Shown one piece after another: positions 32,747 to 46,703 of a DNA stretch of 64,000 nt. This DNA is from an uncultured Myxococcales bacterium (GTDB lineage: Bacteria; Myxococcota_A; Polyangia; GCA-2747355; CAZCFB01). The position numbers were made by a program, and so were the translations under genes. The stretch's first letter is position 1. Every line of letters starts with the position of its first letter. The notes under the pieces were generated by a model. That model did not search any database. It was not told the origin of the DNA and saw only the letters and a program-made list of their open reading frames with translations. The stretch spans positions 302 through 64,301 of the forward strand of contig CAZEFW010000032.1 in NCBI GenBank assembly GCA_964511535.1, read 5' to 3'.

Positions 32747-34303
32747 CTACACGCTCGTGATGGCGTTGACCTGTTTCTGAAGCTCGCACACCAGCTCGCC
32801 GCGCTCCTTGGCCTCGTCGGACAGCGCCTCCTCCAGGGAGCGGTGTTTGCCCTCGGCGAGGTTGGTCTCGCGCACGAAGATCCCCAGCTCGTCGGCCAGC
32901 GCCTTGAGCCGGCGGATGCGGTCGTTGCGCACCTCCAGCGTGTTGGTGCCGTCGGTGGTGGACCACTTGTAGTGGTAGTCCATGTCTGGCAGGCAGAGGC
33001 CGTACTTGTCGGCGCGGATGTGGATCGGCGTGTCGGTGATGATGTGCAGGGCGTTGATCGACTTCAGCTCGTCGATGTAGTCGGCGTTCTCCTTGACGAA
33101 GCTGTAGGTCTCCTGGAACGCGTCTTCGTCCTCGCCCGGGAAGCCGATGATGGTGAACAGCGCCGTCTTGATGCCCGCGTCGTGGGCGTCCCGCACCACC
33201 TTCTGCGCCTCCTCGCGGCTGAACAGGCGCAACTTGTTCATCAGCTTGAGCACCCGGTCGGAGGCTGACTCCACGCCGAGCTGGAGCTCGTAGCAGCCGG
33301 CGGCGCGCATGGCCTGCAGCACCTCGGCGCTCTGGCCCTTGTGGGGGATCGCCTCACCCCGCCATTCCAGCTCCATGCCGGAGTCGATGATCAGCTGGCA
33401 CAGCTTGCCCATCTCCTCCACGTCGCCGTTGATCACCGGGTCGCACACGGTGAAGCGCTTGATGCCGAGGAACTCGGAGTAGTGCTTCAGGCTGGCCAGG
33501 ATCGCCTCGGCGGAGTGGGTGCGGTACTTGCCGTCGATCATCTTGCCCTTGCAGAAGCTGCAGGCGCCGATGCAGCCGCGGCTCCACTCCACGATGAGCT
33601 CGTCGCCGGGGTAGCGGTCCAGCAGGAAGTCCTCGTAGTGCGGGAAGGGGATGCCGTCCAGGGGGAGGATCCGCTTGCGCCGCTTGTACGGCTCCGGCTC
33701 CGCGTCGGTGGCGCGCTGGATGTAGACCCCGGTCATGCCGCTCAGGTTCTCACCTGCGCGGAGCCGCTCGATGGCCTCCACCAGGATCGCCTCGCCCTCG
33801 CCCATGGCGTAGCCCTCGATGAGCTCGGGGATGTTGTCGATGAAGATCTGCCGGTACTCGGGGGTGACGCAGGCGGGCCCGCCCAGCAGGATGTGCTTGT
33901 CGGGGGCGCGCTCCTTGATGCGGCGGACCAGCTCGATGGTGCAGCGCTCCTTGGGGTCCACCACGGAGAAGCCAACCAGCGGGGCATCGCTGGCCGCGAC
34001 GATGTCGGCGTACTCGTCCAGGTGCGGACCGATGATGTCGAGCAGCAGGTCGAAGGTGGTCTCGTTGCTCCAGTAGTTCTTGTTCTCCACATGCCACAGC
34101 AGCTGCCACTCGGCGCCGAGGCGATGGTAGAGGTCCACGTTGAAGTCGAGCACCTCCACGCCGTAGCCCTTGTGCCGCGCGTAGCCTGCCAGGTGGGCCA
34201 GGGCCGTGGGCGGGTTGTTGAAGCCCCAGGGGGCGGCGGTGGCCAGGATGACGTCGATGGGGCGGCCCTCGTCCGGGCGGTTCTGCCACGGGGTCTCGGG
34301 CAC
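32747..34303 (-). CDS. B12-binding-domain radical SAM enzyme (class B)
   Basis: N-terminal Rossmann-like B12 domain (LVGFSVVDPKERCTIELVRRIKERAPDKHILLGGPA). CxxxCxxC at WSRGCIGACSFC. GTG start. Confidence 0.8.
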   Translation of the reverse strand: MPETPWQNRPDEGRPIDVILATAAPWGFNNPPTALAHLAGYARHKGYGVEVLDFNVDLYHRLGAEWQLLWHVENKNYWSNETTFDLLLDIIGPHLDEYADIVAASDAPLVGFSVVDPKERCTIELVRRIKERAPDKHILLGGPACVTPEYRQIFIDNIPELIEGYAMGEGEAILVEAIERLRAGENLSGMTGVYIQRATDAEPEPYKRRKRILPLDGIPFPHYEDFLLDRYPGDELIVEWSRGCIGACSFCKGKMIDGKYRTHSAEAILASLKHYSEFLGIKRFTVCDPVINGDVEEMGKLCQLIIDSGMELEWRGEAIPHKGQSAEVLQAMRAAGCYELQLGVESASDRVLKLMNKLRLFSREEAQKVVRDAHDAGIKTALFTIIGFPGEDEDAFQETYSFVKENADYIDELKSINALHIITDTPIHIRADKYGLCLPDMDYHYKWSTTDGTNTLEVRNDRIRRLKALADELGIFVRETNLAEGKHRSLEEALSDEAKERGELVCELQKQVNAITSV

Positions 34304-34340
34304 CGGGATGTGGCCCGGGTCGTGGGGGGGCGGCGCCGCA

Positions 34341-36398
34341 TCATGAGCGGGTTCGGGGGGGAGGTGGAGCTCGGGGGCGGGATCGGGGTCGGGGTCGGGG
34401 GCGGGGTCGGGAGCGGGGTCGGGGTCGGGAGCGGGTTGGGGGGCGGGCGCGGGGGGCGGGCGCGGGCGCGGGCTCGGGCTCGGGCTCGGGAGTGGAATCG
34501 GGACGCGGGACCGGCTTGGCTGGCTGAAGGGGCGCGAGCTCTTCGCGCGCCTCGCCGGTCAGCTCGTCCACGGCGTCAGGGTCCTTGCCCGTGAGGCTCG
34601 GCCGCTCGGCCTCGGCCATCACGGCTGCGCCGGGGGTGCCCGACGCGCCGGGAGGGGCTTCGTACTGCGGGCCCTTGCCGGGGATCACCAGCCCTACCAA
34701 CGCGTCCTTGGCCTCGCCCACTGATCGGCGGAGCTCCTGCGTGGCGAGCAGCGGGCCCTGGCGGGTGAAGGCGCGCATGGCGCCGCCCACTCGCTGCAGG
34801 CTGCTGATGGCCCGCGACACCTTGCCCGGCTGAGTCTCTGATTGTTCGGGCGGCACCATACCCGCGCCGGTGCCCTCCCAGCCGGGTGGGCGCCAGGGGG
34901 GCTCCACAGCCTTCGGCTCCTCGGACTCGGCCGGCGCCTCGGGCTCGGCCGGCTCCTCGGGCTCCGGCTCTTGCCCCGGCATCTGCACGTCCCGGCCGAT
35001 GCTCTGGGCGGCCCACACCGCGGTCTCCATGCTGCGGCGGTGCCGCAGGTACGGGATGCCGAACTCGTCGAGCACCCGGCCCGGCTTGTCCATGGTGCCG
35101 TAGGCCAGCAGGAACCGGCCGGGGTCGCGCTCCTTGATCCGGCGCATCACCTCCAGGGTCAGGGCCTGGTTCGCCTCGCAGATCATGAACAGCAGGTGGC
35201 CCGCGGCCACCTCTCGGGCCCGGGCCACGCACCACTCCACCTCGTCGGGCACCTGCTGGAGCAGCTCGGCCGAGCCGTCCCCGTGGTGCACGACGCCGTG
35301 GCCGGCGCGGTGCCACAGGTGGGTCACCGTGTTGTCCATGCGCTGGTAGACCTTGTCGCTCAGGTCCGCCATGGTCTCGGTGAGGCCGATCTTTCGCAGG
35401 CCGGATTGCACGGAGGGCATGGTTGAGCCGTCGCTGTCCATGACTGCGCACGGCAGCAGGACCAGGGCCATGTCCACTTCGGTTCTGGGGGTCACGGGTT
35501 GCACGATGGCCTCCTCACAACGGCTGCAGGGGAACCCCTCGGGCAGGGGGTGTTTTCCGTCGACGATCTCGCGGACCGCCCGGTACTGGTCCGAGTGCCA
35601 CAGCTGCTCGATGCTCTGGCCCTCGAGGCTGCCGGGGATCACCTGCCGCTGCCAGTCCATGCAGCACAGGATGGTCTCTCCGCTGTAGAGAACATGGAGC
35701 ATCTCGGGCCACCAGATGGAGTTGCAGCCCATCACGGTGGTGTTCTCCGGTGGGGCCGCCACCTCCACGTCCACGTTGCCGGCGCGGCTGATGGACTGGC
35801 CGAAGAAGCTGATCCGCTTGACGCCAAGCTCGCGGAAGTGGGTCAGCTCGGCGTCGCGCTCCTCGCCGGTGACCGGGCCGCCGCCGTTGAAGGTGACCAT
35901 CACCCACTCCGGCCCGCGGCGCGCCACCGCCTTCTCCACGAACTTGTCGACCCGGCGGTAGGTCACGTCCCGCTTGAGGCCCATGGCCTCCTTGTAGGCC
36001 TCCTCCGAGAAGCCGTGCACGCTGATGCCGATCCAGTCGAGGCCGGAGTCGAGCAGCGCGTCGGCGCGCTTGTCGGTGAGCAGGCTGCCGTTGGTCAGGA
36101 TGTGAACCGTGGCCTGGGGGTTTCGCTCCTTGGCGTAGTTGATCCGCGGCACGATGTCCGGGTCGAGCAGCGGCTCGTTCATCAGGTAGAGCATGATGCT
36201 CTGGACCTCATCACGATGCTCGCTGCACTCGTCCATGATGCGGCGGAACAGCTCCTCCTGCATCACGCCCTGGTCGAGATCGCCGGACACCTTGGGGTAG
36301 GGGCAGAAACGGCAGGCGGCGTTGCAGCGGCTCACCGTCTGCACCATCACCTTTTCGGGGAACGGAACCAGCGTCGTCATGGCGGGATAGTGTAGCAC
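34341..36398 (-). CDS. Radical SAM/SPASM-like enzyme fused to a B12-binding-like domain and a long Pro/Glu/Arg low-complexity tail
   Basis: CNAACRFC (C25/C29/C32). Auxiliary Cys cluster GCNSIWW ... ILCCMDW ... FPCSRCEE. The second half (LLFMICEANQALTLEVMRRIKERDPGRFLLAYG) resembles the B12 domain of the next gene. The start is GTG 36398 or ATG 36380. Confidence 0.75.
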   Translation of the reverse strand: MLHYPAMTTLVPFPEKVMVQTVSRCNAACRFCPYPKVSGDLDQGVMQEELFRRIMDECSEHRDEVQSIMLYLMNEPLLDPDIVPRINYAKERNPQATVHILTNGSLLTDKRADALLDSGLDWIGISVHGFSEEAYKEAMGLKRDVTYRRVDKFVEKAVARRGPEWVMVTFNGGGPVTGEERDAELTHFRELGVKRISFFGQSISRAGNVDVEVAAPPENTTVMGCNSIWWPEMLHVLYSGETILCCMDWQRQVIPGSLEGQSIEQLWHSDQYRAVREIVDGKHPLPEGFPCSRCEEAIVQPVTPRTEVDMALVLLPCAVMDSDGSTMPSVQSGLRKIGLTETMADLSDKVYQRMDNTVTHLWHRAGHGVVHHGDGSAELLQQVPDEVEWCVARAREVAAGHLLFMICEANQALTLEVMRRIKERDPGRFLLAYGTMDKPGRVLDEFGIPYLRHRRSMETAVWAAQSIGRDVQMPGQEPEPEEPAEPEAPAESEEPKAVEPPWRPPGWEGTGAGMVPPEQSETQPGKVSRAISSLQRVGGAMRAFTRQGPLLATQELRRSVGEAKDALVGLVIPGKGPQYEAPPGASGTPGAAVMAEAERPSLTGKDPDAVDELTGEAREELAPLQPAKPVPRPDSTPEPEPEPAPAPAPRARPPTRSRPRPRSRPRPRPRPRSRPRAPPPPRTRS
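34371..34492. repeat. 6-bp G-rich microsatellite (GGGGTC/GGGAGC/GGGCGC/GGGCTC) lying inside the 3' end of the ORF above
   Basis: Read directly. On the minus strand it translates as PEPEPEPAPAPAPRARPP..RSRPRPRSRPRPRPRPRSRP. Confidence 0.9.
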
Positions 36399-36408
36399 CG
36401 GCGGGGGG

Positions 36409-37200
36409 TCAGGGCAGGGGCGGTCCAGCGCGCATCAGCTCGTTGAGCGCCCGTCGGACCTGCTTGGCCAGCCCCGGCAGATCTTGCTCCTGCGACCCGG
36501 CAACCGGGATCGGCTCACCGAACAGCACGTCCACCTTTCCCGGGCGCACCCGCCAGTCGCCCGCGGGGCAGATGTTGCGCAGCCCGCGCAGGCCCATGGG
36601 AACCACCGGCACGCCCGCCATCAGCGCCAGCCGGAAGGCGCCCGGGTAGAACGGGCCGATGCGCCCGTCCCGGGTGCGGTGCCCCTCGGGGAAGACCACG
36701 AAGCTGTCGCCGCCGCGGATCATCTCGGCGGCGCGCTCGAAGGCCTGCCGGTTGAGCTCCTTGTTCTTGCGGTCCACCGGGATCTGCCCGAATACCCGCA
36801 CGCACCCGCCATAGATCGGGATGTCGAAGTGGCTCTGGTCCTGAAACGACCGGTGGAAGTACGGGATCGACTGGAACACCACGAACAGGTCCAGCAGGCT
36901 GACATGGTTGATGCAAAAAATGTACGCGCCCTGTGGGTCCAGGCGCTCCAGCCCGTGCTGCTCCACCTCGATCCCCGCGAGCCCCGTGACCCGGCGACAG
37001 ACGAACTTGCCCAGGCGATCGAACTTGCGGCCAGGGATGACGGTCTTGTCCAGCAGGTTGAACAGCAGCAGCCAGGCGCCCAGGTGCGGGGCGCTCACCG
37101 CCCAGCGCGCCACGGACCCGACGGTCTCCAGCGGTGAGAAGGGCGCCAGGTGGTCCTGGTACAGGTCGAGGTCCTCGTTCAGTTCAGGGGGCGCGGGCAT
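36409..37200 (-). CDS. plsC: 1-acyl-sn-glycerol-3-phosphate (lysophospholipid) acyltransferase
   Basis: HX4D motif NHVSLLD. FPEGHRTRDG. VPVVP block. Confidence 0.75.
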   Translation of the reverse strand: MPAPPELNEDLDLYQDHLAPFSPLETVGSVARWAVSAPHLGAWLLLFNLLDKTVIPGRKFDRLGKFVCRRVTGLAGIEVEQHGLERLDPQGAYIFCINHVSLLDLFVVFQSIPYFHRSFQDQSHFDIPIYGGCVRVFGQIPVDRKNKELNRQAFERAAEMIRGGDSFVVFPEGHRTRDGRIGPFYPGAFRLALMAGVPVVPMGLRGLRNICPAGDWRVRPGKVDVLFGEPIPVAGSQEQDLPGLAKQVRRALNELMRAGPPLP

Positions 37201-37209
37201 GTCTGTTTC

Positions 37210-37680
37210 TCAGTCTCTGTCGGGCTCGATGTCGATGACGTCACCCTGCGCGGGGCCGGGGCCGGGGCCAGGGCCGGGGCCCGCCCCGGGGAAGGGCCCC
37301 ATGGGGGTCAGCTGCACGCGGCCCTTGAGGTACCGCACAAGCCAGCGCGCGGCCCGGGCGCGCACCGGCGGGATGAGCAGCAGGAAGCCCACGCCGTCGG
37401 AGATAAACCCGGGCAGGATCAGGGTCGCGCCCACGATGAGCAGCATGATGCCAGCCACGATCTCCTCGGCGGGCATCTGGCCGCGGTTCATGGCGCCCTG
37501 CATGCGCGCCAGTGTGGCCAGGCCCTGCATGCGCACCAGGCTGCCGCCCACCACGCCGGTGAGCACGCACATGGCGGCGGCGGTGAGGAAGGAGAAGCGC
37601 GCGGCCACCTCGATGAGCAGGTAGAGCTCGGCGAAGCCGACCACCATTACCAACAGAAAGAATCGCGCGACGAACGTCAT
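37210..37680 (-). CDS. fxsA: FxsA family membrane protein
   Basis: FAELYLLIEV ... LTGVVGGSLVR ... LLIVGATLILPGFISDGVGFLLLIPPVR is the FxsA signature as I know it. Confidence 0.75.
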   Translation of the reverse strand: MTFVARFFLLVMVVGFAELYLLIEVAARFSFLTAAAMCVLTGVVGGSLVRMQGLATLARMQGAMNRGQMPAEEIVAGIMLLIVGATLILPGFISDGVGFLLLIPPVRARAARWLVRYLKGRVQLTPMGPFPGAGPGPGPGPGPAQGDVIDIEPDRD

Positions 37681-37693
37681 GGCGGTTGCTTGA

Positions 37694-39463
37694 TTAGCGC
37701 ATTCTGCGGTGCGTGGCCAGCGCAGCGGCCAATAGAAGCAGCCAGAGGGGAGCCGGCCCGCCCGCCACGGCGCAGGTGCCGCCCGTGCTGCCCGGCGTGC
37801 CGGCGCCGCGGTCGGGGGCAGGGGAGGGCAGGCCGTCCGTGGCAGCAGCGCCGCGGTCCTTCTTTGTCTTGCCGGCGTCGTTGCCCGGGGGCGCGCCCGC
37901 CTCCTTGCCCGGGGCCCCGGCGTCCTTTTTGGGCGGCGGCTTGGACTGCCCGATGTTGAGGTAGCAGATGGCGTAGACCGTGCTCTTGTTCGGGTCGGCG
38001 GTGAAGGTGAGCCGGTGGGTCCCCTTCTGCTTGGGCGTGACCGCGTAATACCAGTGGTACTTGCCGCCCACCTTCTTCACCCCGCCCCAGGTGGTGGGCA
38101 GCTTGCCGCCCGCCGGCGCCTCCACCTCCAGGCCCACGTTGGCGTACGGGGCAGCGGCCGAGATGTCCACATTCACCTTGGCGCCCGGCGCGGGCTTGCC
38201 CGGGGACCAGCTCATGCTCGCCGTGCCCCGGCAGGTGGGCGCGCAGTCGCCGCGGGTCGACCGGCAGGTGTAGCCCGCCTTGCAGCCGCCGGCGGCGCCG
38301 CATGAGGCGGTGGCCTTGCACTTGCCGCTGGCCAGCTCGCAGATCTGCTTGCCCTTGCAGTCGCGGTCGTGGGTGCAGCCCGTGGGCGTGGTGCCGCCGC
38401 ACTTGACCTTGGTCCAGGCATACTTCTTGGAAAACGCCTTCTTCAGGTCGCCCAGCAGCTTGCTGCGGCTGCCGATGGCGAAGTCGCGGCCCGTGCCGTC
38501 GTCGTTCTTGGTCCAGCGGTAGGGCGTGATGGCGCGCACCTTCGTCTTGGCGGTCTTGTTCCACGCCGCCACGTCGGCGTACAGCGCCTGGAAGTAGCCC
38601 ACGTCGGCGTCGGGGTAGCACTTGTTCCCCTTCTGAGGGGTGCAGGCGTTTCCGCTCTCGGTGATGAACACCGGCGCGCCGCCCAGGCCCTTCTTCTCGA
38701 TCACCTGCGTGATGTAGTCGCGGTAGATGCGGAAGTTCCAGTGCCAGGTGTCGCTCCAGGTGGCGCCGCCCGGGCACTGGTCGACGGTGTTGTCCGTGGC
38801 CTTCTTGCCGTCGGTGACCTTGGACGCCTTGAGCGCCGAGCCGGTGCCCTCCTGGGTGTAGGCGTGCAGGGCGAAGCCGTCGGGAGTGACCCCCTTGGCC
38901 TTGATCTTGTCGATGATCATGCGCAGTGAGTGCAGGCAGCCGGGCGAGTAGGGCGAGTTGGGCGCCACCAGCACCAGGTCCGACTGGTGGCCCGGCAGCT
39001 TGTGCACCCGCTTGTGCACCTCCACGTAGGCCGCGGCGTAGCCCGCTGAGGAGCAGTCGGGGTCGCTCTTGTTCCAGGTGAAGTTGGGCTCGTTGCCCAC
39101 GATCCAGACATGGATATTGGGGCACTTGCTCACGAAGGAGGCGAAGGCCCCGCCGTAGCCAGGCGCCTGGGACGCGCTCTTGGGCACCGACTCCGAGCCG
39201 GAGACGTCCAGGCGCTGGATGATGGAGATACCCGCCTTGGTAGCCGAGGTGTGGCAGCTGGCCCCGGGCGAGCCGGAGGTGCCGATGTACTGCAGGTCGG
39301 TGATCCAGCCCTTGTCGCAGCCCGACGTGGCGCCCTTCATCCAGGACTCTGCCTGCATGTCGTGCATGCCGTTGAGCAGCGCCGACTGCCCCGGCGGCGG
39401 CTGGGCGGCGGCGGCCCGTGGCAAGGCGGCCAGCAGGAGCAGGAGGGGGAGGAGGCGGTGCAT
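37694..39463 (-). CDS. Secreted clan GH-A-like (TIM-barrel) glycoside hydrolase with a Cys-rich linker, an Ig-like domain and a MYXO-CTERM tail
   Basis: Signal peptide. WIVGNEPN and VFITESG (candidate acid/base and nucleophile Glu). Tail GGTCAVAGGPAPLWLLLLAAALATHRRMR. Confidence 0.65.
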   Translation of the reverse strand: MHRLLPLLLLLAALPRAAAAQPPPGQSALLNGMHDMQAESWMKGATSGCDKGWITDLQYIGTSGSPGASCHTSATKAGISIIQRLDVSGSESVPKSASQAPGYGGAFASFVSKCPNIHVWIVGNEPNFTWNKSDPDCSSAGYAAAYVEVHKRVHKLPGHQSDLVLVAPNSPYSPGCLHSLRMIIDKIKAKGVTPDGFALHAYTQEGTGSALKASKVTDGKKATDNTVDQCPGGATWSDTWHWNFRIYRDYITQVIEKKGLGGAPVFITESGNACTPQKGNKCYPDADVGYFQALYADVAAWNKTAKTKVRAITPYRWTKNDDGTGRDFAIGSRSKLLGDLKKAFSKKYAWTKVKCGGTTPTGCTHDRDCKGKQICELASGKCKATASCGAAGGCKAGYTCRSTRGDCAPTCRGTASMSWSPGKPAPGAKVNVDISAAAPYANVGLEVEAPAGGKLPTTWGGVKKVGGKYHWYYAVTPKQKGTHRLTFTADPNKSTVYAICYLNIGQSKPPPKKDAGAPGKEAGAPPGNDAGKTKKDRGAAATDGLPSPAPDRGAGTPGSTGGTCAVAGGPAPLWLLLLAAALATHRRMR

Positions 39464-39488: not shown

Positions 39489-39672
39489 GGCGGCCTGTGG
39501 CCGCCGAATGCCAGAGTGCCAGAGTGCCAGAATGCCAGAATGCCAGAATGTGACGGCTGAAGCTGAGGCTGATGCTGAGGCTGGGGCTGATGCTGAAGCT
39601 GATGCTGAAGCTGATGCTGAGGCTGAAGCTGACGCTGATGCTGAGGCTGACGCCGAAACCGAGGCCGAATAG
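39489..39672. repeat. Composite block on the minus strand: (CAGCNU) x about 19, then (AUUCUGGC) x about 6, then a GC hairpin. Same order as 6085..6328.
   Basis: Hairpin ggcggcc-tgt-ggccgcc at 39489..39505. Octamers at 39506..39553. Hexamers at 39556..39672. Confidence 0.9.
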
Positions 39673-39701: not shown

Positions 39702-42700
39702 TCAGCCGTGAATCGTCCGCTCTATAATCTCCTGCTGCACCTCGGGCGACAGGTCGGCGAAGTAGGCGCTGTAGCCGCTGACGCGCACCAGCAGCCACGG
39801 GTGCTTCTCGGGGTGCTCCCGCGACTCGCGCAGCAGATCCGGGTCCACCGCGTTGAGCTGCACGTGCATGCCCCCGTTGGCGAAGTAGCCGCGGATCAGG
39901 GCCGCCACCGCCTCGGCGCCGGCCTCGCCCGGGACTGCCGAGGGGTCGAGCATCACGTTCACGCTCACGCCGTTCTTGGCGTGCCGTCTGAGGTCCAGGC
40001 GCGCCGCAGAGTTGAGCGCCGCCGTGGGCCCGGCGCGATCCATGCCGTCTGCCGGGGACAGGCCGTTGGCCAGGGCCGCGCCGGCCGGGCGCCCCGACGG
40101 CATCGCGCCCACGGTCTCGCCAAACGCCTGGTGGCTGGTGACCGAATAGAAGCCGGCCACGTAGGGCCCGCCCCGGGTGTTCTTGTGCTTGCCCAGGGCA
40201 TCGGCGAAGGCGCCCATCACCGCGTCGGCCCAGCGGTCCACCAGGGGTTCGTCGTTGCCGAACTTGGGCGCGCGCATCAGGTGCCCCTGGAGCCAACCGT
40301 ACCCCTCGAAGTCCTTCTTCAGCGCCGTGACCAGCGTGGGCAGATCGCACAGCTGGCTGGTGAAGACCACGTCGGCCACCGCGGCCAGGCTGTCGGCCAC
40401 GTCCACCACGCCGACGCCCTGGATCCCGCTGGCGTTGTAGCGCGCGCCGCCCGCCGAGGCGTCCACGCCCTTCTCCAGGCAGCCGTCCACGAGGCATGAA
40501 GTCAGCGGCGTGGGGTGAAACCGCGCGTTGGCCAGCTCGATGGGCTGCAGGTGCTTCATCAGCTGTGCCACCAGGTGGGCCACCTGCTTCTCGAACGCGT
40601 CGAACAGCTCCTCGGTGGAGCCCAGCTTCTTGACTGGCGGCGTACGCGTGCCGCCTCCGCGGGTGCCCAGGGCCCACTCGAGGCAGATGGCCAGGTTGGC
40701 CAGCGCCGCGTCGGTGGAGCCGTAGGTCTTGCCGCAGGACACCGGCTCCACGCACCCCACCGGGCTGTAGTCCAGGGCGTCCCGGCGGGTCATGCGCCGC
40801 CCCTGGAGCATGGGCACCACCACGTCGTCGTTCATCAGCGAGGGCGCCCCGGCCCCGTCGCGCAGCATGGCGGCGATGCGATGGACGTAGGCCGGGCGGC
40901 TCCCCTTGTGGACGCGCGCGTGGTAGTTGGGCTGGCGCATGCGCAGCCGCTCCATGGCGTCGAGGAACAATCCGGTGAGCTCGTTCTCCGCGTCGCCTCC
41001 TGCGGGGGTCTGCCCGCCCACCACCACCACCTGCCCGTTGAACATGCCGCCGTGGAACCGGGTGAGGTAACCGGAGAAGACCGGGACGATCTCGCTCATC
41101 TTCACCGTGAAGCAGCCGATGAGCTCGGCCGCCTCGTGGCGCTCGATGCGCTGGCTGGCTCGGTCCGCCTCGTACAGCGGCCAGAGCAGCTGGTCCAGCC
41201 GCCCCGGGGAGATGCTGTTGTCCAGGCTCTCCTGGCTCAGCGCGATCTGCACCAACAGGATCGACTGCAGCGCCTCGCGCATGGTGTGGGCCGAGCGCGC
41301 GGGCACCCGCGAGCAGATGTGGGCGATGGCGTACAGCTCGGCCATGCGCGCGGCGTTGCGCTCCCGGCGGGCCAGGCGCCGGGCCTCCTTTTCGTAGGCG
41401 GCGGCCATCTCCTCCACGCCCTTGCACACGATCTGGACCGCGGCGTGGAAGTCCTTCTGCTCCTGGTCCCGGGCGGAGTCCATGGCCCTGGCAGCCCGCC
41501 GCGAGATGCCGGAGATCCCCTCGCGCAGCAGCAGCTCATAGTCCGGCACGAAGTGAGAGATCCCCCCCGCCTCGTTGATCAGGTACCGCGTCGCCTTGAG
41601 GGACTCGCGGTAGAACCCGGGCGCCTTGTAGAACGGGAACGCCCGGGCCGCCAGGTGGCGCGTGGCCCAGAACGGGAACACCTTGCGCTTGAGCGCGGCG
41701 CGGTCCTCCTCGTCGATCTCCAGCGGATTGACCTCCCGGGTGTCGAAGCTGTTCAGGTCGAGCAGCTGGGCCACGCCGTGCAGCTCCGGCAGGATCCCGC
41801 CTCCCACCCGGCGAGAGCTGAAGCTGCCCACCAGCAGCTCGTGGTCGTAGATCCTGGCGCTGCGGCTCTTCAGCACATGGCGCAGCGCCTCCGCGCGCTG
41901 GATGATGGCCGGCTTCTTCCGGTTCGGCTTGTCCCGGTAGTACTCGGTGACCAGCAGCGCTCGCTCGGCGCAGATCCCCGGCCTGGCGCGCTGCACGGCC
42001 TTGCGCAGGCGGTACACGCGGGACGTGAACGGATCCTCCTTGCGCACGGCGGCGAGGGTCTCGGTGGGCTCCCCCTCCACCGTCACCTGGATGCCGTGCA
42101 TGTTGAACAGGGTGGCGGCCCGCGCCAGCGCCTCCTCTGCTTCATCGGCGCTGATGTCGAGGGTCGGCTGCTTGCTGCCAAGGGGCTCGAGCTTCGCCGC
42201 CCCCGCCCCGTTGTAGCGCAGCAGCCGCAGCTCCTGCTGGTCGAGCCCCTTGAGGGCCACGGCCAGCGCAGAGATGCTCTCGTCCGAGTCGTTGTGGCCT
42301 GGCACCACGGGGAAGCGGAAGCGAACCGCCGCGCCCGCCTCCAGCAGGCGGCTGGCGTTGTCCAGGATGCGCTCGGTGCCGACCCCGGTGAGCTCGCGGT
42401 GCAGCCGGGCGCCGCCCGCCTTGAGGTCGAAGTAGAACTGGTCCGTGTAGCGGCGCAGCGCCTGGAACGCCTCCCACGGCGCCTCACCGCAGGTCTCCAC
42501 CAGGGTGCCCACGCCCTTGACCTTGCAGCGCGAGAGCAGGCGTGAAGCGGCGCGGTACTGCATCAGCGGCTCACCCCCCGACAGGGTGATCCCGCCCCCC
42601 GACGCGTCGAAGTAGGCCTTGTCGGCGAGCAGCTTTTCGGCCAGGCGGTCCACCATCACGCGCCGCCCCACGCGCCGGAGCGCCTCCTGGGGGCAGGCGC

Positions 42701-42977
42701 GGGCGCAGTCGCCGCAGGCCTGGCACAGCCCGCGCAGCAGCCGGTCGTCCGCCTCCACCAGGGCTCGGTGCTCGCACACCTCCACGCACCTGAAGCAGCG
42801 CACGCACCGGTTGGCGTGGAACGCGATCTCGCCGCGGGCAGAGATCGACTCCGGGTTCTGGCACCAGGCGCACCGCATGGGGCAGCCCTTGAAGAACACC
42901 ACCGTGCGCAGACCGGGCCCGTCGTGGGTGCAGAACCGCTGCACGTCGAAGATCAGCAAGTCATGGGCGCCTGGCAT
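39702..42977 (-). CDS. Fusion protein: glycyl-radical-enzyme activase (radical SAM) at the N-terminus, glycyl radical enzyme (PFL-fold, eliminase-type GCVEP loop) at the C-terminus
   Basis: Activase part: FCTHDGPGLRTVVFFKGCPMRCAWCQNPE (C32/C36/C39), plus CVRCFRCVEVC and CQACGDCARAC ferredoxin-like motifs and ITLSGGEP. GRE part: VGCVEPVSCG thiyl loop and C-terminal LVRVSGYSAYFADL (Gly1068). Confidence 0.85.
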   Translation of the reverse strand: MPGAHDLLIFDVQRFCTHDGPGLRTVVFFKGCPMRCAWCQNPESISARGEIAFHANRCVRCFRCVEVCEHRALVEADDRLLRGLCQACGDCARACPQEALRRVGRRVMVDRLAEKLLADKAYFDASGGGITLSGGEPLMQYRAASRLLSRCKVKGVGTLVETCGEAPWEAFQALRRYTDQFYFDLKAGGARLHRELTGVGTERILDNASRLLEAGAAVRFRFPVVPGHNDSDESISALAVALKGLDQQELRLLRYNGAGAAKLEPLGSKQPTLDISADEAEEALARAATLFNMHGIQVTVEGEPTETLAAVRKEDPFTSRVYRLRKAVQRARPGICAERALLVTEYYRDKPNRKKPAIIQRAEALRHVLKSRSARIYDHELLVGSFSSRRVGGGILPELHGVAQLLDLNSFDTREVNPLEIDEEDRAALKRKVFPFWATRHLAARAFPFYKAPGFYRESLKATRYLINEAGGISHFVPDYELLLREGISGISRRAARAMDSARDQEQKDFHAAVQIVCKGVEEMAAAYEKEARRLARRERNAARMAELYAIAHICSRVPARSAHTMREALQSILLVQIALSQESLDNSISPGRLDQLLWPLYEADRASQRIERHEAAELIGCFTVKMSEIVPVFSGYLTRFHGGMFNGQVVVVGGQTPAGGDAENELTGLFLDAMERLRMRQPNYHARVHKGSRPAYVHRIAAMLRDGAGAPSLMNDDVVVPMLQGRRMTRRDALDYSPVGCVEPVSCGKTYGSTDAALANLAICLEWALGTRGGGTRTPPVKKLGSTEELFDAFEKQVAHLVAQLMKHLQPIELANARFHPTPLTSCLVDGCLEKGVDASAGGARYNASGIQGVGVVDVADSLAAVADVVFTSQLCDLPTLVTALKKDFEGYGWLQGHLMRAPKFGNDEPLVDRWADAVMGAFADALGKHKNTRGGPYVAGFYSVTSHQAFGETVGAMPSGRPAGAALANGLSPADGMDRAGPTAALNSAARLDLRRHAKNGVSVNVMLDPSAVPGEAGAEAVAALIRGYFANGGMHVQLNAVDPDLLRESREHPEKHPWLLVRVSGYSAYFADLSPEVQQEIIERTIHG

Positions 42978-43034: not shown

Positions 43035-43955
43035 TTACCTGGCGCGCGCGCGCAGCGCCGCCAGCAGATCGTCCCAGGGCGCCGGCACCTCGAAGCTGCC
43101 CTCGTCGTCAGGCAGGGCCACCTTGCTGGCGTGCAGCAGGGCGCCGGCATTTTCCCGGCCGGGCAGGTCCAGGGGCGCGCCGCCGTACAGGGTGTCGCCC
43201 GCCAGGGGGTGGCCGAGGTGTGCCAGGTGAACGCGGACCTGGTGGCGCCGCCCGGTGGCGCTCTGTACCCGCACGAGGGTGTGACCGCCCAGCTGCTCCA
43301 GCGGCTCCACCACGCTGCGCGCCTCGTGGGCGGGATCCGGGAGGTACTCCTCCACGGCCGCCACCCGGGTGCGGTCCCCGGGCACGGGCTTGACCGATGC
43401 GGTGACCTCCGCGCCCTCCGCCAGCGCGCCGGTGGCCACTGCGAGGTACTCCTTGGTGACCCGGCCATCGCCGAACTGCTGTCGCAGGCGGCTGTAGGTC
43501 TCTGGATCCCGCGCGGCCAGCAGCACGCCGCTGGTGGAGCGGTCCAGGCGGTGCACCAGCCCGGCCTCGCGCGGGTCCGGCGAGGCCCCCACGCAGTCGG
43601 GAAAACGCGCCGCGATGCCGTTGGCCACGGTGCCGCGCTCGGCAGGCCGGAGCGGGTGGCAGGGCAGCCCGGCGGCCTTGTTGATGGCCACCAGATCCGC
43701 GCGCTCGGCGATGATCTCCAGCGGGATCTCTGGCTGGGGCGTCGGGCCTACCTGGGCGGCCGCGGCAGGCAGCGACACCCGCTGCCCGGCCCGCAACCGC
43801 AGGCCCTTCTTGGCGCCGCGCCGGCCATCCACCCGCACCTCGCCGGCCGCGATGAGCCGCGCCGCGCCGGCGCCGCCCATGTGGGGCAAGCGCGCGCACA
43901 GGAACCGATCCAGACGAAGCCCTGCCTCGTCCGGTCGGACCTGGTAGTCGATCAT
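43035..43955 (-). CDS. RluA-family 23S rRNA pseudouridine synthase (RluD-like, with S4 domain)
   Basis: HRLDRSTSGVLLAA catalytic Asp motif. HQVRVHLAHLGHPLAGD. Confidence 0.85.
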   Translation of the reverse strand: MIDYQVRPDEAGLRLDRFLCARLPHMGGAGAARLIAAGEVRVDGRRGAKKGLRLRAGQRVSLPAAAAQVGPTPQPEIPLEIIAERADLVAINKAAGLPCHPLRPAERGTVANGIAARFPDCVGASPDPREAGLVHRLDRSTSGVLLAARDPETYSRLRQQFGDGRVTKEYLAVATGALAEGAEVTASVKPVPGDRTRVAAVEEYLPDPAHEARSVVEPLEQLGGHTLVRVQSATGRRHQVRVHLAHLGHPLAGDTLYGGAPLDLPGRENAGALLHASKVALPDDEGSFEVPAPWDDLLAALRARAR

Positions 43956-44001: not shown

Positions 44002-44403
44002 CTAGCGCTTGCTGAACTGGTAACGCTTGCGGGCGCCCGGCTGACCGTACTTCTTGCGCTCCTTGACGCGGGCGTCGCGCGTGAGGTAGCCGGCCTTCTT
44101 CAGCGGCGGGCGCAGCTCGTCGCTGAACTGCAGCAGCGCGCGGGAGATCCCGTGGCGCACGGCCGCGGCCTGGCCCGTCGAACCACCACCGTGCACGTTG
44201 GCCTTGATGTCGAACTTGGCCTCGTTCTCGGTGAGCACCAGCGGCTGCATGAGCACCAGCCGGTTGGTGGCGCGAGGGAAGTAGTCCTCCATGTCGCGGT
44301 CATTGATCAGGACGCGCCCGGTGCCGGGGGTCATCCATACCCGGGCCACGGCAGCCTTGCGGCGGCCGGTGCCGTAGAAACGATCTTGGGTCTCGGTGGT
44401 CAT
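44002..44403 (-). CDS. rpsI: 30S ribosomal protein S9
   Basis: I chose the internal ATG of ORF 44002..44793 ([22 protein letters not shown] ... [19 protein letters not shown] ... [18 protein letters not shown]). Confidence 0.95.
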
Positions 44404-44837
44404 GCCTGGATCTCCACTGCCTTGGGCTGCTGGGCCTCGTGGGGATGCTGCGCCCCGGCGTAGACCTTGAGCTTCTTGAGGAGCCTGCGACCGAGCGGTC
44501 CCTTGGGCAGCATGCCCCAGACCGCGTGGAACACCAGGTCCTCCGGTTTCTTCTCCCGCATCTCCGCGGCGGAGGTGGTCTTGAGCGCCCCCGGAAACCC
44601 GCTGTGGGAGTAGTAGTTTTTCTGCTCTTCCTTGCGACCGGTGAGCTTGACCCCCGCGGCGTTGACCACGACGACGAAGTCGCCAGTGTCCACGTGGGGA
44701 GTAAACTGGGGCTTGTTCTTGCCCCGCAGGATGCGTGCAATGGCGGTGGCGGCCCGGCCGAGGGTCACCCCGTCCAGATCCACCAGCACCCACTCGCGGG
44801 CCACTTCACCGGGCTTTGCCTGATAAGTCTTGGACAT
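44400..44837 (-). CDS. rplM: 50S ribosomal protein L13
   Basis: 3' 438 nt of ORF 44400..46010 ([53 protein letters not shown]...). ATGA overlap with rpsI. Confidence 0.95.
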
Positions 44838-44901
44838 CTTTATTCCTATACCTTTCGTAACCAGTGACGCGTAGCGCGGCCCTGGGGGTCGAAACCGGGA
44901 G

Positions 44902-44930
44902 TTTGTACTGTCTTGACGCGCGGCTGTCAA
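44902..44930 (-). promoter_or_regulatory. Putative sigma70 promoter of rplM-rpsI
   Basis: On the minus strand: TTGACA, 17-nt spacer, TACAAA, about 65 nt upstream of the rplM ATG. Confidence 0.45.
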
Positions 44931-44978
44931 CCTCGGAAGGCTTAACAACCGCTTTTTATGGTGATACTTGGAACACCC

Positions 44979-46703
44979 ATGCTGCTGCATATCCACATCA
45001 AGGATCTGGCCATCATCCACGAAGTCGAACTCAGCCCGGGTCCAGGGCTCAACATCCTGACCGGGGAGACCGGCGCGGGCAAATCGATCATCGTCGGTGC
45101 CGCCGGGCTGCTGCTGGGGGGGCGAGCCTCTGCTGACATTGTGCGCAAGGGGCAGCGGGAGGCGGTCGTGGAGGCGTTGTTCGATCTGACCAGCCTGCCC
45201 AACGTGGCCCGGGCCGTCACCGAGGCGGGGCTCCCGCTGGAGGGGGAGGAGCTGCTGCTGCGGCGCGTGATCTCGCGGGCCGGCCGGGGGCGGGTGCATG
45301 TCAACGGCGCGCTTTGCACCCTGGCCGTGTTGCGAGGCATCACCAGGGAGCTGCTGGACATCAGCGGTCAGCACGAGCACCAGCTGCTGTCGGATCGGGC
45401 GCGGCAGCGGCGGATCCTCGATGCCCTCGCCCTGGGCGCGGGCCAGATCGAGACCATGGCCAGGCGGCACGCCGAGCTGGGCAAGGTCTCCTCCAGGCTG
45501 GCCCAGGGGCGGCAGGAGGAGAAGCAGCAGGCAGAGCGGCAGGACTTCCTGGCCTACCAGCTGCGGGAGCTGGAGGGGGCCGACCTGCGCCAGGGCGAGG
45601 ACGAGCAGCTCGCCCTGGAGCGCGAGCGCTTGCAGCGCGCATCGGAGCTCACCGGCGTGGCGCTGGAGGGAGAGGAAGATCTGTACGGCGGGGACGGGTC
45701 GGTGAGCGAACGGCTGGCCCTGCTCCGGCGCCGGCTGGAGGAGCTCGCGCACCTGGATCCCGCGCTGCCGGGGCTGGCCGGGCAGCTTGAAGAGGCGGGT
45801 CTGCAGGTGGAGGACGTGGCGCACTCCCTGCGCCGGCTCGGTGCCGCGGCGGAGCTCGATCCGGCCCGGCTGGAGCAGGTGGAGGCGCGGCTGGATCTGC
45901 TGCACCGCCTGGGGCGCAAGCATGGCCGTACAGTGGCAGAGATGCTGGCTCGCCAGGAAAAGATGCAGGCCGAGTTGGCGCGGCTGGAGTCGCTGGAGCA
46001 TCACCTGCATGACCTCGAGTCAAATCTAGAAAAAAAGAGAAAAGCATCCGAAAAAGAAGCGAAAAAAGTGGAGAATAAACGTCGGAAGGCGGCGCGCAAG
46101 CTGGCGGCCGAGGTCACCGATCACCTGACGCGGCTGCGCATGGAAGGGGCCCGGCTCAAGGTGGACCTGAGCGCCCTGCAGGCGCGGGATGGCGACGATC
46201 CGGCGCTGGTTTTTGCAGACAGGCGGCTGGCGAGCCATGGCTGGGACAGCGTGGAGTTCCTCATGGCCACCAACCCGGGGGAGGATCCCAAGCCCCTGGC
46301 GCGCATCGCCTCCGGGGGAGAGCTGAGCCGGGTGATGCTGGCGCTGCACCGGGTCCTGGGCGAGTACGAGCCTCGCGCCACGGCGGTGTATGACGAGGTG
46401 GACGCCGGGGTAGGGGGGGCGGTGGCAGATGTGGTGGGGCGCTATCTGGCGGACGTGAGCGCCCACCGTCAGGTGCTTTGTGTGACTCACCTGCCCCAGG
46501 TGGCCGCCCACGCCGCGCACCACTTCCACGTGGACAAGACCGTGGCCCGACGCGGAAAAAAGGCCCGGGCGCGCACCCGGCTGCGGACCCTGGATCCAGC
46601 CCAACAGGTGGAGGAGCTGGCCCGCATGCTCGGCGGCGAAGAGGTGACCGAAGAGGCCCGCGCCAACGCCCGCCGCCTGCTCGAGACCGCCGCGGGATCC
46701 TGA
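44979..46703 (+). CDS. recN: DNA repair protein RecN
   Basis: [41 protein letters not shown] ... [18 protein letters not shown] ... GQHEHQLL is collinear with E. coli RecN. The start is ATG 44979; the alternative is 44958. Confidence 0.9.

Follow-up and report, generated by a model that had tools for sequence, protein, structure and literature searches.

A single gene in the window, that is, in the whole 64,000-nucleotide stretch of DNA that was analysed, joins a radical-SAM activase and a glycyl radical enzyme (GRE) in one polypeptide. Judging from its sequence, the product appears to be a genuine single-gene activase and GRE system with a three-[4Fe-4S] radical-SAM activase. The explanation preferred here, to which a probability of about 0.7 is assigned, is a maintained single-gene GRE system that arose by loss of a stop codon, is activated in the tethered state and catalyses a 1,2-elimination, likely of a hydroxyl group. 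This natural fusion layout is conserved and recurrent in uncultured bacteria, and no published description of it was found: neither the full-text literature search nor the June 2026 GRE review (PMC13450708), from which the words 'fused' and 'fusion' are absent, describes a natural activase-GRE fusion. An earlier sequence-only reading had likewise known of no characterised example.

Domain organisation of the fused gene

The gene and its predicted features are located as follows.

39702..42977 (-): entire fused gene, 1091 codons and a stop codon (39702-39704); frame uninterrupted
42078..42977 (-): activase domain, aa 1-300; radical-SAM core with ferredoxin-like insert (TIGR02494, Pfam Radical_SAM)
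42861..42884 (-): CX3CX2C (C32, C36, C39), predicted to bind the SAM-cleaving [4Fe-4S] cluster; invariant across the 30 aligned fused homologues
42693..42806 (-): two CX2CX2CX3C motifs (C58-C68, C85-C95), predicted auxiliary-cluster sites; Fer4 matches, 8/8 Cys invariant
42567..42584 (-): LSGGEP, aa 132-137, SAM-binding GGE motif; L132-P137 invariant in the 30 fused homologues
42024..42077 (-): linker, aa 301-318; variable among homologues, partly disordered in the model
39705..42023 (-): GRE, aa 319-1091; PFL-like barrel and glycyl radical domain (Pfam, Foldseek)
41553..41555 (-): His475, corresponding to His164 of glycerol dehydratase, which is proposed to act as the acid on the leaving hydroxyl; invariant
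40743..40760 (-): Cys loop VGCVEP, aa 740-745 (Cys742, Glu744), aligned to glycerol dehydratase; C742 and E744 invariant
40710..40712 (-): Asp756, 14 residues past the catalytic Cys, like glycerol dehydratase Asp447; invariant
39759..39785 (-): glycyl loop RVSGYSAYF, aa 1065-1073 (Gly1068), aligned to glycerol dehydratase; R1065 and S1067-S1070 invariant

The translation contains no stop, as expected for the single 1091-aa ORF of the sequence-only reading; a script check found all the motifs at the residues which that reading had named, and an HMM scan confirmed its Radical_SAM, activase, PFL-like and Gly_radical domains. The Pfam matches are Radical_SAM at aa 26-233, Fer4 families at 52-107, PFL-like (PF02901) at 319-953 (E 1e-164) and Gly_radical (PF01228) at 970-1073. 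In NCBIfam, the GRE-activase model TIGR02494 covers aa 9-289 and exceeds its cut-off (285.7 against 174.35 bits). The best-scoring family for the GRE part is TIGR01774 (PFL2/GD family; aa 318-1090, 658.6 bits), whose cut-off of 678.2 is missed by 20 bits, which leaves the protein formally outside this family. The three sequence characters of PFL-like GREs, namely the PFL-like barrel, the glycyl radical domain and the Cys-loop Cys, are all present, and the predicted GRE matches solved GREs with Foldseek TM-scores of 0.92-0.94 overall and 0.93-0.94 for 1r8w and 2f3o, normalised by target length. The eight-Cys ferredoxin-like insert of the activase (C58/61/64/68 and C85/88/91/95) is the mark of the majority class of GRE activases (PMC13450708, section 2.1).

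The two halves are connected by an 18-residue linker, which in homologues is lengthened by inserts reaching about 40 residues, as revealed by the junction alignment. The pLDDT of the model is below 50 at aa 306-312, in the middle of the linker, and about 81-94 over the activase domain. Neither the window frame nor the homologue alignment contains a conserved Met or an internal start at the junction.

Genomic neighbourhood and host

The fused gene lies downstream of three housekeeping genes on the same strand, a context correctly recognised from the letters alone.

44400-44837 (-): rplM
44002-44403 (-): rpsI
43035-43955 (-): RluA-family (RluD-like) pseudouridine synthase; 57-nt gap to the fused gene

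Other neighbours in the window include a secreted glycosidase-like protein, FxsA, PlsC and RecN. The 5 kb or so around the fused gene leave no space for genes of shell proteins, transporters or aldehyde dehydrogenases, in agreement with the earlier remark that none is adjacent, and shell or aldehyde dehydrogenase families are absent among the approximately 30 of 41 window ORFs that were scanned. The set of adjacent shell, aldehyde dehydrogenase and phosphotransacylase genes that defines a microcompartment locus is thus lacking at the fused gene, and a second activase or GRE was not found in the window. Nine neighbourhoods from the clade to which the gene belongs (clade A, the window included) are mutually different, and none of the others has a gene in common with the window. 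In the absence of conserved partner genes, the product presumably passes into general metabolism.

The gene is compositionally native, as had been proposed: its codon usage correlates with that of the other window genes at 0.96, the highest value printed (mean 0.86), and its GC3 is 0.95. The best named relatives of the window RecN belong to Myxococcales, Deltaproteobacteria and Polyangia MAGs (44-53% identity), and its best relatives overall are metagenomic proteins (66% identity). By its protein relatives, the host appears to be an uncultured Myxococcota-like lineage, consistent with the earlier suggestion of a probable myxobacterium. The next gene of the window carries a MYXO-CTERM-like tail, which is Myxococcota-like as well. 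GREs are oxygen-sensitive, and the sequence-only reading had gone on to propose an anaerobic metabolism hidden in a mostly aerobic lineage. The argument is unproven, as the host lineage is uncultured and its aerobic habit only presumed.

Predicted chemistry of the GRE half

The comparison with solved structures supports an eliminase-like rather than PFL-like GRE, as far as sequence can tell. Among solved structures, the highest scores go to A. fulgidus PFL2 (545 bits), glycerol dehydratase (448), 1,2-propanediol dehydratase 9rco (440) and CutC (434); the X-succinate synthases score 213-218 bits and PFL 99. Cys742 and Glu744 align to Cys433 and Glu435 of glycerol dehydratase (IIGCVEP), and RVSGYSAYF aligns to its glycyl loop RVAGYSAQF, which bears out the homology of the thiyl Cys, the Glu and the radical Gly assumed earlier. 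His475 lies in GISHF, aligned to GVGHV of 1r8w (His164), and Asp756 in STDAAL, aligned to WHDSAF (Asp447). All the sequence marks of the C-O dehydratase type, Cys-x-Glu (C742-V-E744) and the His164 and Asp447 equivalents, are therefore present; the roles of CXE and His164 in C-O eliminases have been reviewed (PMC13450708, sections 5.6, 5.6.1). It is most likely that the enzyme performs 1,2-eliminase (dehydratase) chemistry.

The glycerol dehydratase of C. butyricum (1r8w/1r9d) and 1,2-propanediol dehydratase (5i2g, 9rco) share with the fused protein the Cys-x-Glu, His164/Asp447, the SISPxRxDQ segment and an activase with a ferredoxin-like insert, at TM-scores of 0.92-0.93, normalised by target length. 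They differ in having a separate activase, only 34% identity and other second-shell residues: the fused protein has ESLDN for ES(N/S)GH, STD for WHD and YSVT for YP(S/V)S. Because these pocket residues differ, glycerol or propanediol cannot be assigned as the substrate by simple transfer. In addition, these dehydratases are usually found in diol-utilisation or microcompartment loci, whereas the fused gene of the window stands alone.

The close relatives outside clade A include split pairs, both of the sister clade (L041, L014, L028, L012) and of a wider group (e.g. L011, L019-L021, L036), with a GRE 48-53% identical. They share the pocket signature GGISH[FL], ESLDN, GG[ML]FNGQ, GCVEPV, STDA, YSVTH and RVSGYS and the same three-cluster activase, which is encoded upstream on the same strand, and they too are without conserved neighbours. 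They differ in that the two polypeptides are encoded by genes whose stop and start abut or overlap by 4 nt, and none has been characterised. The substrate is probably shared with these split relatives of the same pocket signature.

Another 1,2-eliminase or isomerase activity in place of C-O dehydration is rather unlikely, be it the cleavage of a C-N bond in an amino alcohol or of a C-S bond in a hydroxysulfonate, or the PflD/YbiW-like isomerisation of a sugar phosphate. The CXE loop is common to C-O, C-N and C-S eliminases (PMC13450708). The HpsG, HypD and CutC HMMs give near-equal scores (434-446 bits), and therefore sequence alone picks no subclass. The pocket has Asp-Asn (D586, N587) in place of the Gly-His of glycerol and propanediol dehydratases, as well as Thr755, 13 residues past the catalytic Cys, a Thr also found in the aligned CutC chain. 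An acidic pocket residue might bind an amine (cf. HypD Asp278, CutC Asp216/Thr502). However, both His475 and Asp756 are invariant, and there is no Arg either four residues before His475 or in AGFYSVTSH, where, judging by the alignment register, the two sulfonate-binding arginines of C-S lyases would lie. Moreover, none of the NCBIfam equivalog models is reached (HpsG, HypD, CutC and HpfG, 392-446 bits against cut-offs of 1000-1100), every cut-off being missed by more than 550 bits.

It is very unlikely that the GRE is a hydroalkylase (X-succinate or alkylsuccinate synthase) feeding a beta-oxidation-like pathway, as suggested for A. fulgidus PFL2. PFL2 (2f3o), the top PDB match, whose activase is a separate protein, has 38% identity and a TM-score of 0.94 (target-length normalised), as well as the CXE loop and the His/Asp equivalents, and its function is debated between dehydratase and methylalkylsuccinate synthase (PMC13450708). 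The Gly loop RVSGYSA coincides with the BSS/IBSS heptad quoted in the same review, and acyl-CoA synthetase, enoyl-CoA hydratase, acyl-CoA dehydrogenase and FadR-type genes occur near some relatives (4-10 of 84 loci). These acyl-CoA neighbours are not conserved within clade A, however, and the solved X-succinate synthases are far weaker matches (TutD 218, MasD 213 bits) than the dehydratases (440-448 bits). The second shell of the PFL2 pocket is also unlike that of the window protein (QENYEQ against ESLDN, CVEIAP against CVEPVS, CYPMT against FYSVT). Small accessory-subunit genes are also lacking, the fused gene being bordered by the 57-nt gap upstream and by a 238-nt spacer of tandem repeats downstream.

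Under the preferred reading of a tethered eliminase, the reduced activase domain would cleave SAM, as is known for the family, and the 5'-deoxyadenosyl radical would take a hydrogen from Gly1068 of its own chain or of the partner chain in a GRE dimer. The stoichiometry would be fixed at 1:1, and a separate activase gene need not be co-inherited or co-expressed. The glycyl radical would then generate a thiyl radical on Cys742, which would take a hydrogen from a hydroxylated substrate positioned by Glu744, His475 and Asp756. Elimination of a group from the adjacent carbon, in all likelihood OH, would yield a carbonyl product.

Spread, origin and significance of the fusion

In a scan with one genome per species, fused genes were found at 34 of 84 loci. 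Clade A is monophyletic in the NJ tree and consists of fused genes only, from uncultured Acidobacteriota, Myxococcota-like and other MAGs; its sister group comprises split pairs in the same activase-then-GRE order, found in MAGs of Myxococcales, Polyangiaceae and Deltaproteobacteria. Beyond clade A, there are a second fused clade (B), a third fused cluster and one case of reverse order. Clade B (e.g. P0084, P0087, L046), represented in Smithella, Desulfomonilia, Clostridia, Leptospira and Promethearchaeota MAGs, likewise has the activase ahead of the GRE in a single chain of about 1090-1120 aa and retains the GCVEP loop and the His/Asp equivalents. It differs in its 31-35% identity, its independent origin in the tree, its activase, which is short and PFL-AE-like and lacks the ferredoxin insert, its pocket (AHF, ESYEN, ETMSTDQ, NTDC) and its Gly loop (RVAGYC). 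These comparisons of predicted proteins show repeated fusion, with at least two to three apparently independent origins. The sequence-only reading had called the architecture unusual; this stands insofar as only about three of the best 150 clusters at 50% identity are fused, but not in view of approximately 58 fused clusters, the 34 of 84 loci and the repeated origins. The JGI product names of two proteins (P0036, P0089) already name both halves.

The tree and the gene order point to a single origin of the clade-A fusion, at the base of the clade. It probably arose when an ancestral activase-then-GRE pair, whose genes abutted or overlapped by 4 nt, lost the stop codon between them. The activase and GRE genes overlap by 4 nt in two split pairs of the sister clade (L012 and L014) and abut with zero gap in a more distant relative (L011), and the activase C-termini and GRE N-termini of the split pairs match the respective flanks of the linker.

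In 30 aligned fused homologues, all 11 activase Cys, the GGE motif, H475, C742, E744, D756 and G1068 are invariant, and the fused gene is selectively maintained. It is highly improbable that the activase domain chiefly serves other GREs, or that the GRE half is decaying as a passenger, with the fusion irrelevant to GRE activation. Activases do act catalytically, and limited cross-reactivity is possible (PMC13450708), but both halves are equally constrained in clade A (activase 50-60%, GRE 58-75% identity), no other GRE is present in the window, and independent fusions always join the activase to a GRE that retains the Gly and Cys loops.

A merger of two genes through loss of a stop or a frameshift in assembly or sequencing, which a single base error could cause where split genes abut or overlap by 4 nt, and in favour of which one clade-A contig, L010 (P0059), has its frame broken within the GRE, is effectively refuted by independent assemblies (an identical 1091-aa protein on JGI contigs, P0099, and on a separate ENA contig a protein, P0100, with one internal substitution, I358F, and a start called six codons downstream), by the same fused frame in approximately 58 clusters, whose proteins are 54-70% identical and come from different samples, and in four species-representative genomes (L005-L008), and by a linker that stays in frame while its length and sequence vary, which is not expected of independent errors. 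The closest seemingly unfused match (P0046) is a fused gene interrupted by a contig end.

The window gene belongs to a populous family, in which the functional effect of fusion is putative. An adaptive tether, as opposed to a neutral read-through, in which a 1:1 activase quickly and repeatedly re-installs the radical at fluctuating or low oxygen and the Asp-Asn of the pocket marks a novel class of GRE substrate, e.g. an amino alcohol, is an unlikely extension. If true, it would place elimination chemistry in Myxococcota-like bacteria and Acidobacteriota, which are not classic strict fermenters, and would provide a natural stoichiometric activase:GRE complex, of a kind not known from any structure. 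PFL-AE is the only activase with a solved structure, the way in which the buried glycyl loop gets to the activase and then flips back is "not well understood", and insoluble or low-yield activases are the main bottleneck for GRE function assignment, so that "more stable GRE:AE interfaces" are wanted (PMC13450708). A family with a natural 1:1 covalent tether may serve as a test system for activase structure, loop access and AE stability. A 1:1 PFL-AE:PFL ratio leads to faster installation of the radical and also to its faster loss (PMC13450708), and the fixation of this ratio by evolution at least twice would make radical lifetime a testable question. This uncharacterised eliminase-like GRE clade, in fused and split forms, occurs widely among MAGs of sediment and soil type, beyond the well-studied gut anaerobes.

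An activase and a glycyl radical enzyme in one reading frame

The gene at 39702-42977 on the minus strand comprises 1091 codons in a single uninterrupted frame, and profile scans with Pfam and NCBIfam place in it both a radical-SAM activating enzyme (activase) and a glycyl radical enzyme (GRE), as the sequence-only reading had proposed. Every motif named in that reading was found by a script check at the residues assigned to it.

Features of the fused protein (motifs by script check, domains by Pfam)
aa 26-233, Radical_SAM domain
C32/C36/C39, CX3CX2C motif
aa 52-107, several Fer4 families
C58-C68 and C85-C95, two copies of the CX2CX2CX3C motif
aa 132-137, LSGGEP motif
aa 319-953, PFL-like domain (E 1e-164)
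aa 740-745, VGCVEP motif
aa 970-1073, Gly_radical domain
aa 1065-1073, RVSGYSAYF motif with Gly1068

In the NCBIfam comparison, aa 9-289 matched the GRE-activase subfamily TIGR02494 with 285.7 bits, above the cut-off of 174. The family nearest to aa 318-1090 is TIGR01774 (PFL2/glycerol dehydratase), where the score of 658.6 bits lies 20 bits below the cut-off, and all the equivalogs of characterised GREs, whose cut-offs are 1000 or more, fell far below threshold (HpsG 446, HypD 435, CutC 434, HpfG 392). The AlphaFold2 model built on the homologue alignment (mean pLDDT 84.6, pTM 0.84) shows two confident domains, with pLDDT below 50 at aa 306-312 of the linker. This model confirms the presence of two folded domains and of a disordered linker.

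The loss of a stop codon or a frameshift through sequencing error, which had been raised as an alternative explanation of the single frame, is opposed by independent contigs, by numerous homologues and by a variable in-frame linker. The identical 1091-aa protein is also encoded on JGI contigs (P0099), and a separate ENA contig carries a version (P0100) that differs in a single internal substitution, I358F, and in a start called six codons downstream. The protein search revealed about 58 clusters that are 54-70% identical over the full length and have the same domain order. In the alignment, the junction (aa 301-318) is variable in sequence: certain members have as many as about 40 inserted residues, and no internal Met is conserved. 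Such variation marks a real linker and speaks against a shared sequencing error. In 30 aligned fused homologues, the activase half keeps its 11 cysteines and the GGE motif without exception, and His475, Cys742, Glu744, Asp756 and Gly1068 are likewise invariant, which indicates purifying selection on both halves. The activase-GRE fusion is genuine.

One protein of 790 aa with 73% identity (P0046) was considered as a close unfused relative and rejected: its frame stays open up to the edge of the contig and extends into the C-terminal part of the activase, so that it is a truncated fused gene.

Frequency and origins of the fused architecture

When a single genome was scanned for each species, at least 593 relatives were found. 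The arrangements were counted in 84 loci (the 80 best genome loci and four contigs) by searching the activase and GRE halves of the query separately against ORFs. The fused order activase-GRE was found in 34 of the 84 loci, split pairs with the activase first in 25, split pairs with the GRE first in 18, the GRE only in five and a fusion in reverse order in one. The genes of split pairs may lie very close together: they overlap by 4 nt in loci L012 and L014 and abut with zero gap in L011.

The exhaustive search of 1.84 billion representatives clustered at 50% identity returned 4051 proteins resembling GREs at E <1e-30. In the top 150 of these 4051, the fused clade that includes the window gene (clade A) is a single full-length representative, and beyond it only two clusters, P0227 (a third lineage) and P0233 (a second fused clade, clade B), are confirmed activase-GRE fusions. 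The P0227 protein (1136 aa, 40% identity) has a ferredoxin-type activase and the activase-GRE order. The same representative library contains a GRE bearing an N-terminal SCP2 sterol-carrier domain (P0241).

In the neighbour-joining tree of GRE domains, the window gene falls together with loci L001-L003 and L005-L008 in clade A, which is monophyletic and contains fused genes only. Its sister group is made up of split pairs with the activase first, from MAGs of Myxococcales, Polyangiaceae and Deltaproteobacteria. Clade B (loci L032, L035, L042-L046, L049-L051, L053-L056, L059-L061, L063-L067, L069-L071, L074 and L075) is also entirely fused and is distant from the window protein, at 31-35% identity. 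Its activase is short, PFL-AE-like and without the ferredoxin insert, and its GRE has its own pocket and the Gly loop RVAGYC; its hosts include Smithella, Desulfomonilia, Clostridia, Leptospira, Bacteriovoracaceae, Myxococcota and Promethearchaeota MAGs. The fusion in clade B is independent of that in clade A. For clade A, gene order, tree topology and the junction alignment suggest as the simplest origin that an overlapping activase-then-GRE pair would have lost its stop codon. The architecture, which the sequence-only reading considered unusual, is thus a minority one among GRE families but not unique: it has at least two or three separate origins, and the fused clades are all populous.

Two further arrangements were observed. 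In the Deltaproteobacteria MAG AB_1215_Bin_95, a GRE is followed by an activase in one frame (L034:1514-4525), while the remaining members of its clade are split GRE-then-activase pairs; this reverse fusion was seen only once, at the end of a contig, and may be an assembly error. The Spirochaetota MAG USMO_maxbin.118 carries three paralogous systems (L036, L043 and L079), arranged as a split activase-then-GRE pair, a clade B fusion and a split GRE-then-activase pair.

Genomic context and host

The sequence-only reading had placed the gene directly downstream of rplM-rpsI-rluD on the same strand, and the coordinates agree with this.

Genes and repeats around the fused gene
44400-44837, minus strand, rplM, upstream of the fused gene
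44002-44403, minus strand, rpsI, upstream of the fused gene
43035-43955, minus strand, RluA-family pseudouridine synthase, separated from the fused gene by 57 nt
39555-39669, repeat GGCTGA with 6/12/18-nt periods, about 16 copies
39506-39550, 8-nt repeat GAATGCCA, 5.6 copies
37694-39463, minus strand, secreted protein of 589 aa: signal peptide, glycosidase-like core ('VGNEPN'), Cys-rich central part
32747-37680, minus strand, four-gene string, tightly packed (9-37 nt between genes): FxsA, PlsC-type acyltransferase, radical-SAM/SPASM protein, B12-binding radical-SAM protein

The true start codon of rplM is the ATG at position 44837, and the TGA of this gene overlaps the ATG of rpsI. The mechanical ORF 44400-46010 (minus strand), which contains rplM and extends about 390 codons upstream across recN (44958-46703, plus strand), was dismissed as a high-GC artefact. 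Both repeats lie in the spacer of 238 nt that separates the fused gene from the gene of the 589-aa secreted protein downstream, and tandem repeats make up almost all of this spacer. No promoter or terminator was detected on the minus strand around the fused gene, and tblastn found no second activase or GRE within the window. The assumption that the gene is native rather than imported is borne out by its composition, with GC3 of 0.95 and a codon-usage correlation with other window genes of 0.96 (mean 0.86).

The 589-aa secreted protein, which has no Pfam family, ends with GGTC, a hydrophobic helix and RRMR, resembling a MYXO-CTERM sorting signal, and its tail alone weakly matches a myxosortase-dependent phytase model. 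In the four-gene string, the radical-SAM/SPASM protein (685 aa) has a C-terminal extension of 385 aa, and the models nearest to the B12-binding protein (518 aa) are those of RiPP C-methyltransferase and P-methyltransferase, scored far under the cut-offs. The nearest relatives of RecN are metagenomic proteins with 66% identity, and the best named ones come from MAGs of Myxococcales and Deltaproteobacteria, at 50-53%, and from Polyangia, at 44-46%. These relatives and the MYXO-CTERM-like tail support the assignment of the host to an uncultured Myxococcota-like lineage. The earlier suggestion that a mostly aerobic lineage harbours an unrecognised anaerobic metabolism is not established, as none of the results identifies this lineage as aerobic.

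The flanking ORFs of the 84 related loci were clustered, and the cluster representatives were scanned against Pfam. The families that recurred most often among real neighbours were a FadR-type regulator (10 loci), an ABC transporter and an enoyl-CoA hydratase (nine each), a PilS-like histidine kinase (eight), an SDR (seven) and an acyl-CoA synthetase (six). None of these frequent families is conserved in clade A, so no neighbour can name the substrate. Nine clade A neighbourhoods, including that in the window, and three of split relatives all differ from each other, and blastp detected no synteny of clade A loci with the window; tblastx matches were discarded as high-GC noise. The system behaves as a self-contained unit, consisting of one gene when fused and of two when split.

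Genes of acyl-CoA metabolism recur weakly near the relatives. A fused clade A locus (L003:2113-9920) and a split relative (L091:9569-16073) adjoin genes for biotin carboxylase, carboxyltransferase and acyl-CoA dehydrogenase, with AtuA added in L091 and enoyl-CoA hydratase and BKACE in L003. This Atu/Liu-like set is a possible hint at the pathway, and the acyl-CoA neighbours are a lead only.

Predicted chemistry and meaning of the tethered pair

By sequence match, the closest solved relative of the GRE half is A. fulgidus PFL2 (2f3o, 545 bits), followed by C. butyricum glycerol dehydratase (448 bits), 1,2-propanediol dehydratase (9rco, 440 bits), CutC (434 bits), X-succinate synthases (213-218 bits) and PFL (99 bits). 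TM-scores of the model against glycerol dehydratase, propanediol dehydratase and PFL2, normalised by target length, are 0.92-0.94. In the alignment, Cys433, Glu435 and His164 of glycerol dehydratase correspond to Cys742, Glu744 and His475, and its Asp447 lies 14 residues past the Cys, as does Asp756. The CXE glutamate is hydrogen-bonded to the substrate in the available eliminase structures and, in glycerol dehydratase, CutC and IslA, serves as the base that takes the proton from the hydroxyl of the substrate, and His164 of glycerol dehydratase is the acid for the leaving hydroxyl (PMC13450708). The two arginines anchoring the sulfonate in C-S lyases are absent by alignment register. Based on these equivalents, the structural relatives and the missing arginines, the GRE half is probably a radical 1,2-eliminase, and C-O dehydration of a small hydroxylated compound is its most likely reaction; we estimate the probability of this reading at about two in three. 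The second shell differs from that of diol dehydratases, with ESLDN for ES(N/S)GH, STD for WHD and YSVT for YP(S/V)S, and is also unlike that of PFL2. Clade A and dozens of split relatives at 44-53% identity have a common pocket signature, and therefore the fused and split forms probably share one substrate.

Full-text literature searches, with most subscription journals outside their coverage, found no description of a natural activase-GRE fusion, including in work on GREs in Myxococcota, and the words 'fused' and 'fusion' do not occur in the comprehensive GRE review of June 2026 (PMC13450708). The earlier statement that no characterised example of a covalent 1:1 activase-GRE is known accords with both sources. 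The annotation names at JGI already label both halves, and the architecture is thus visible in databases. The system is a known pair of GRE and activase, of which the architecture is a covalent variant, and the fused protein is one member of a large uncharacterised family. PFL2 itself was still a GRE of unknown function in 2026 (PMC13450708).

According to the same review, PFL-AE is the only activase with a solved structure, it is not understood how the glycyl domain returns after activation, a 1:1 ratio of activase to PFL speeds radical gain and radical loss alike, and insoluble activases and weak GRE:activase interfaces are the main practical bottleneck (PMC13450708). A natural pair tethered 1:1 bears directly on these matters.
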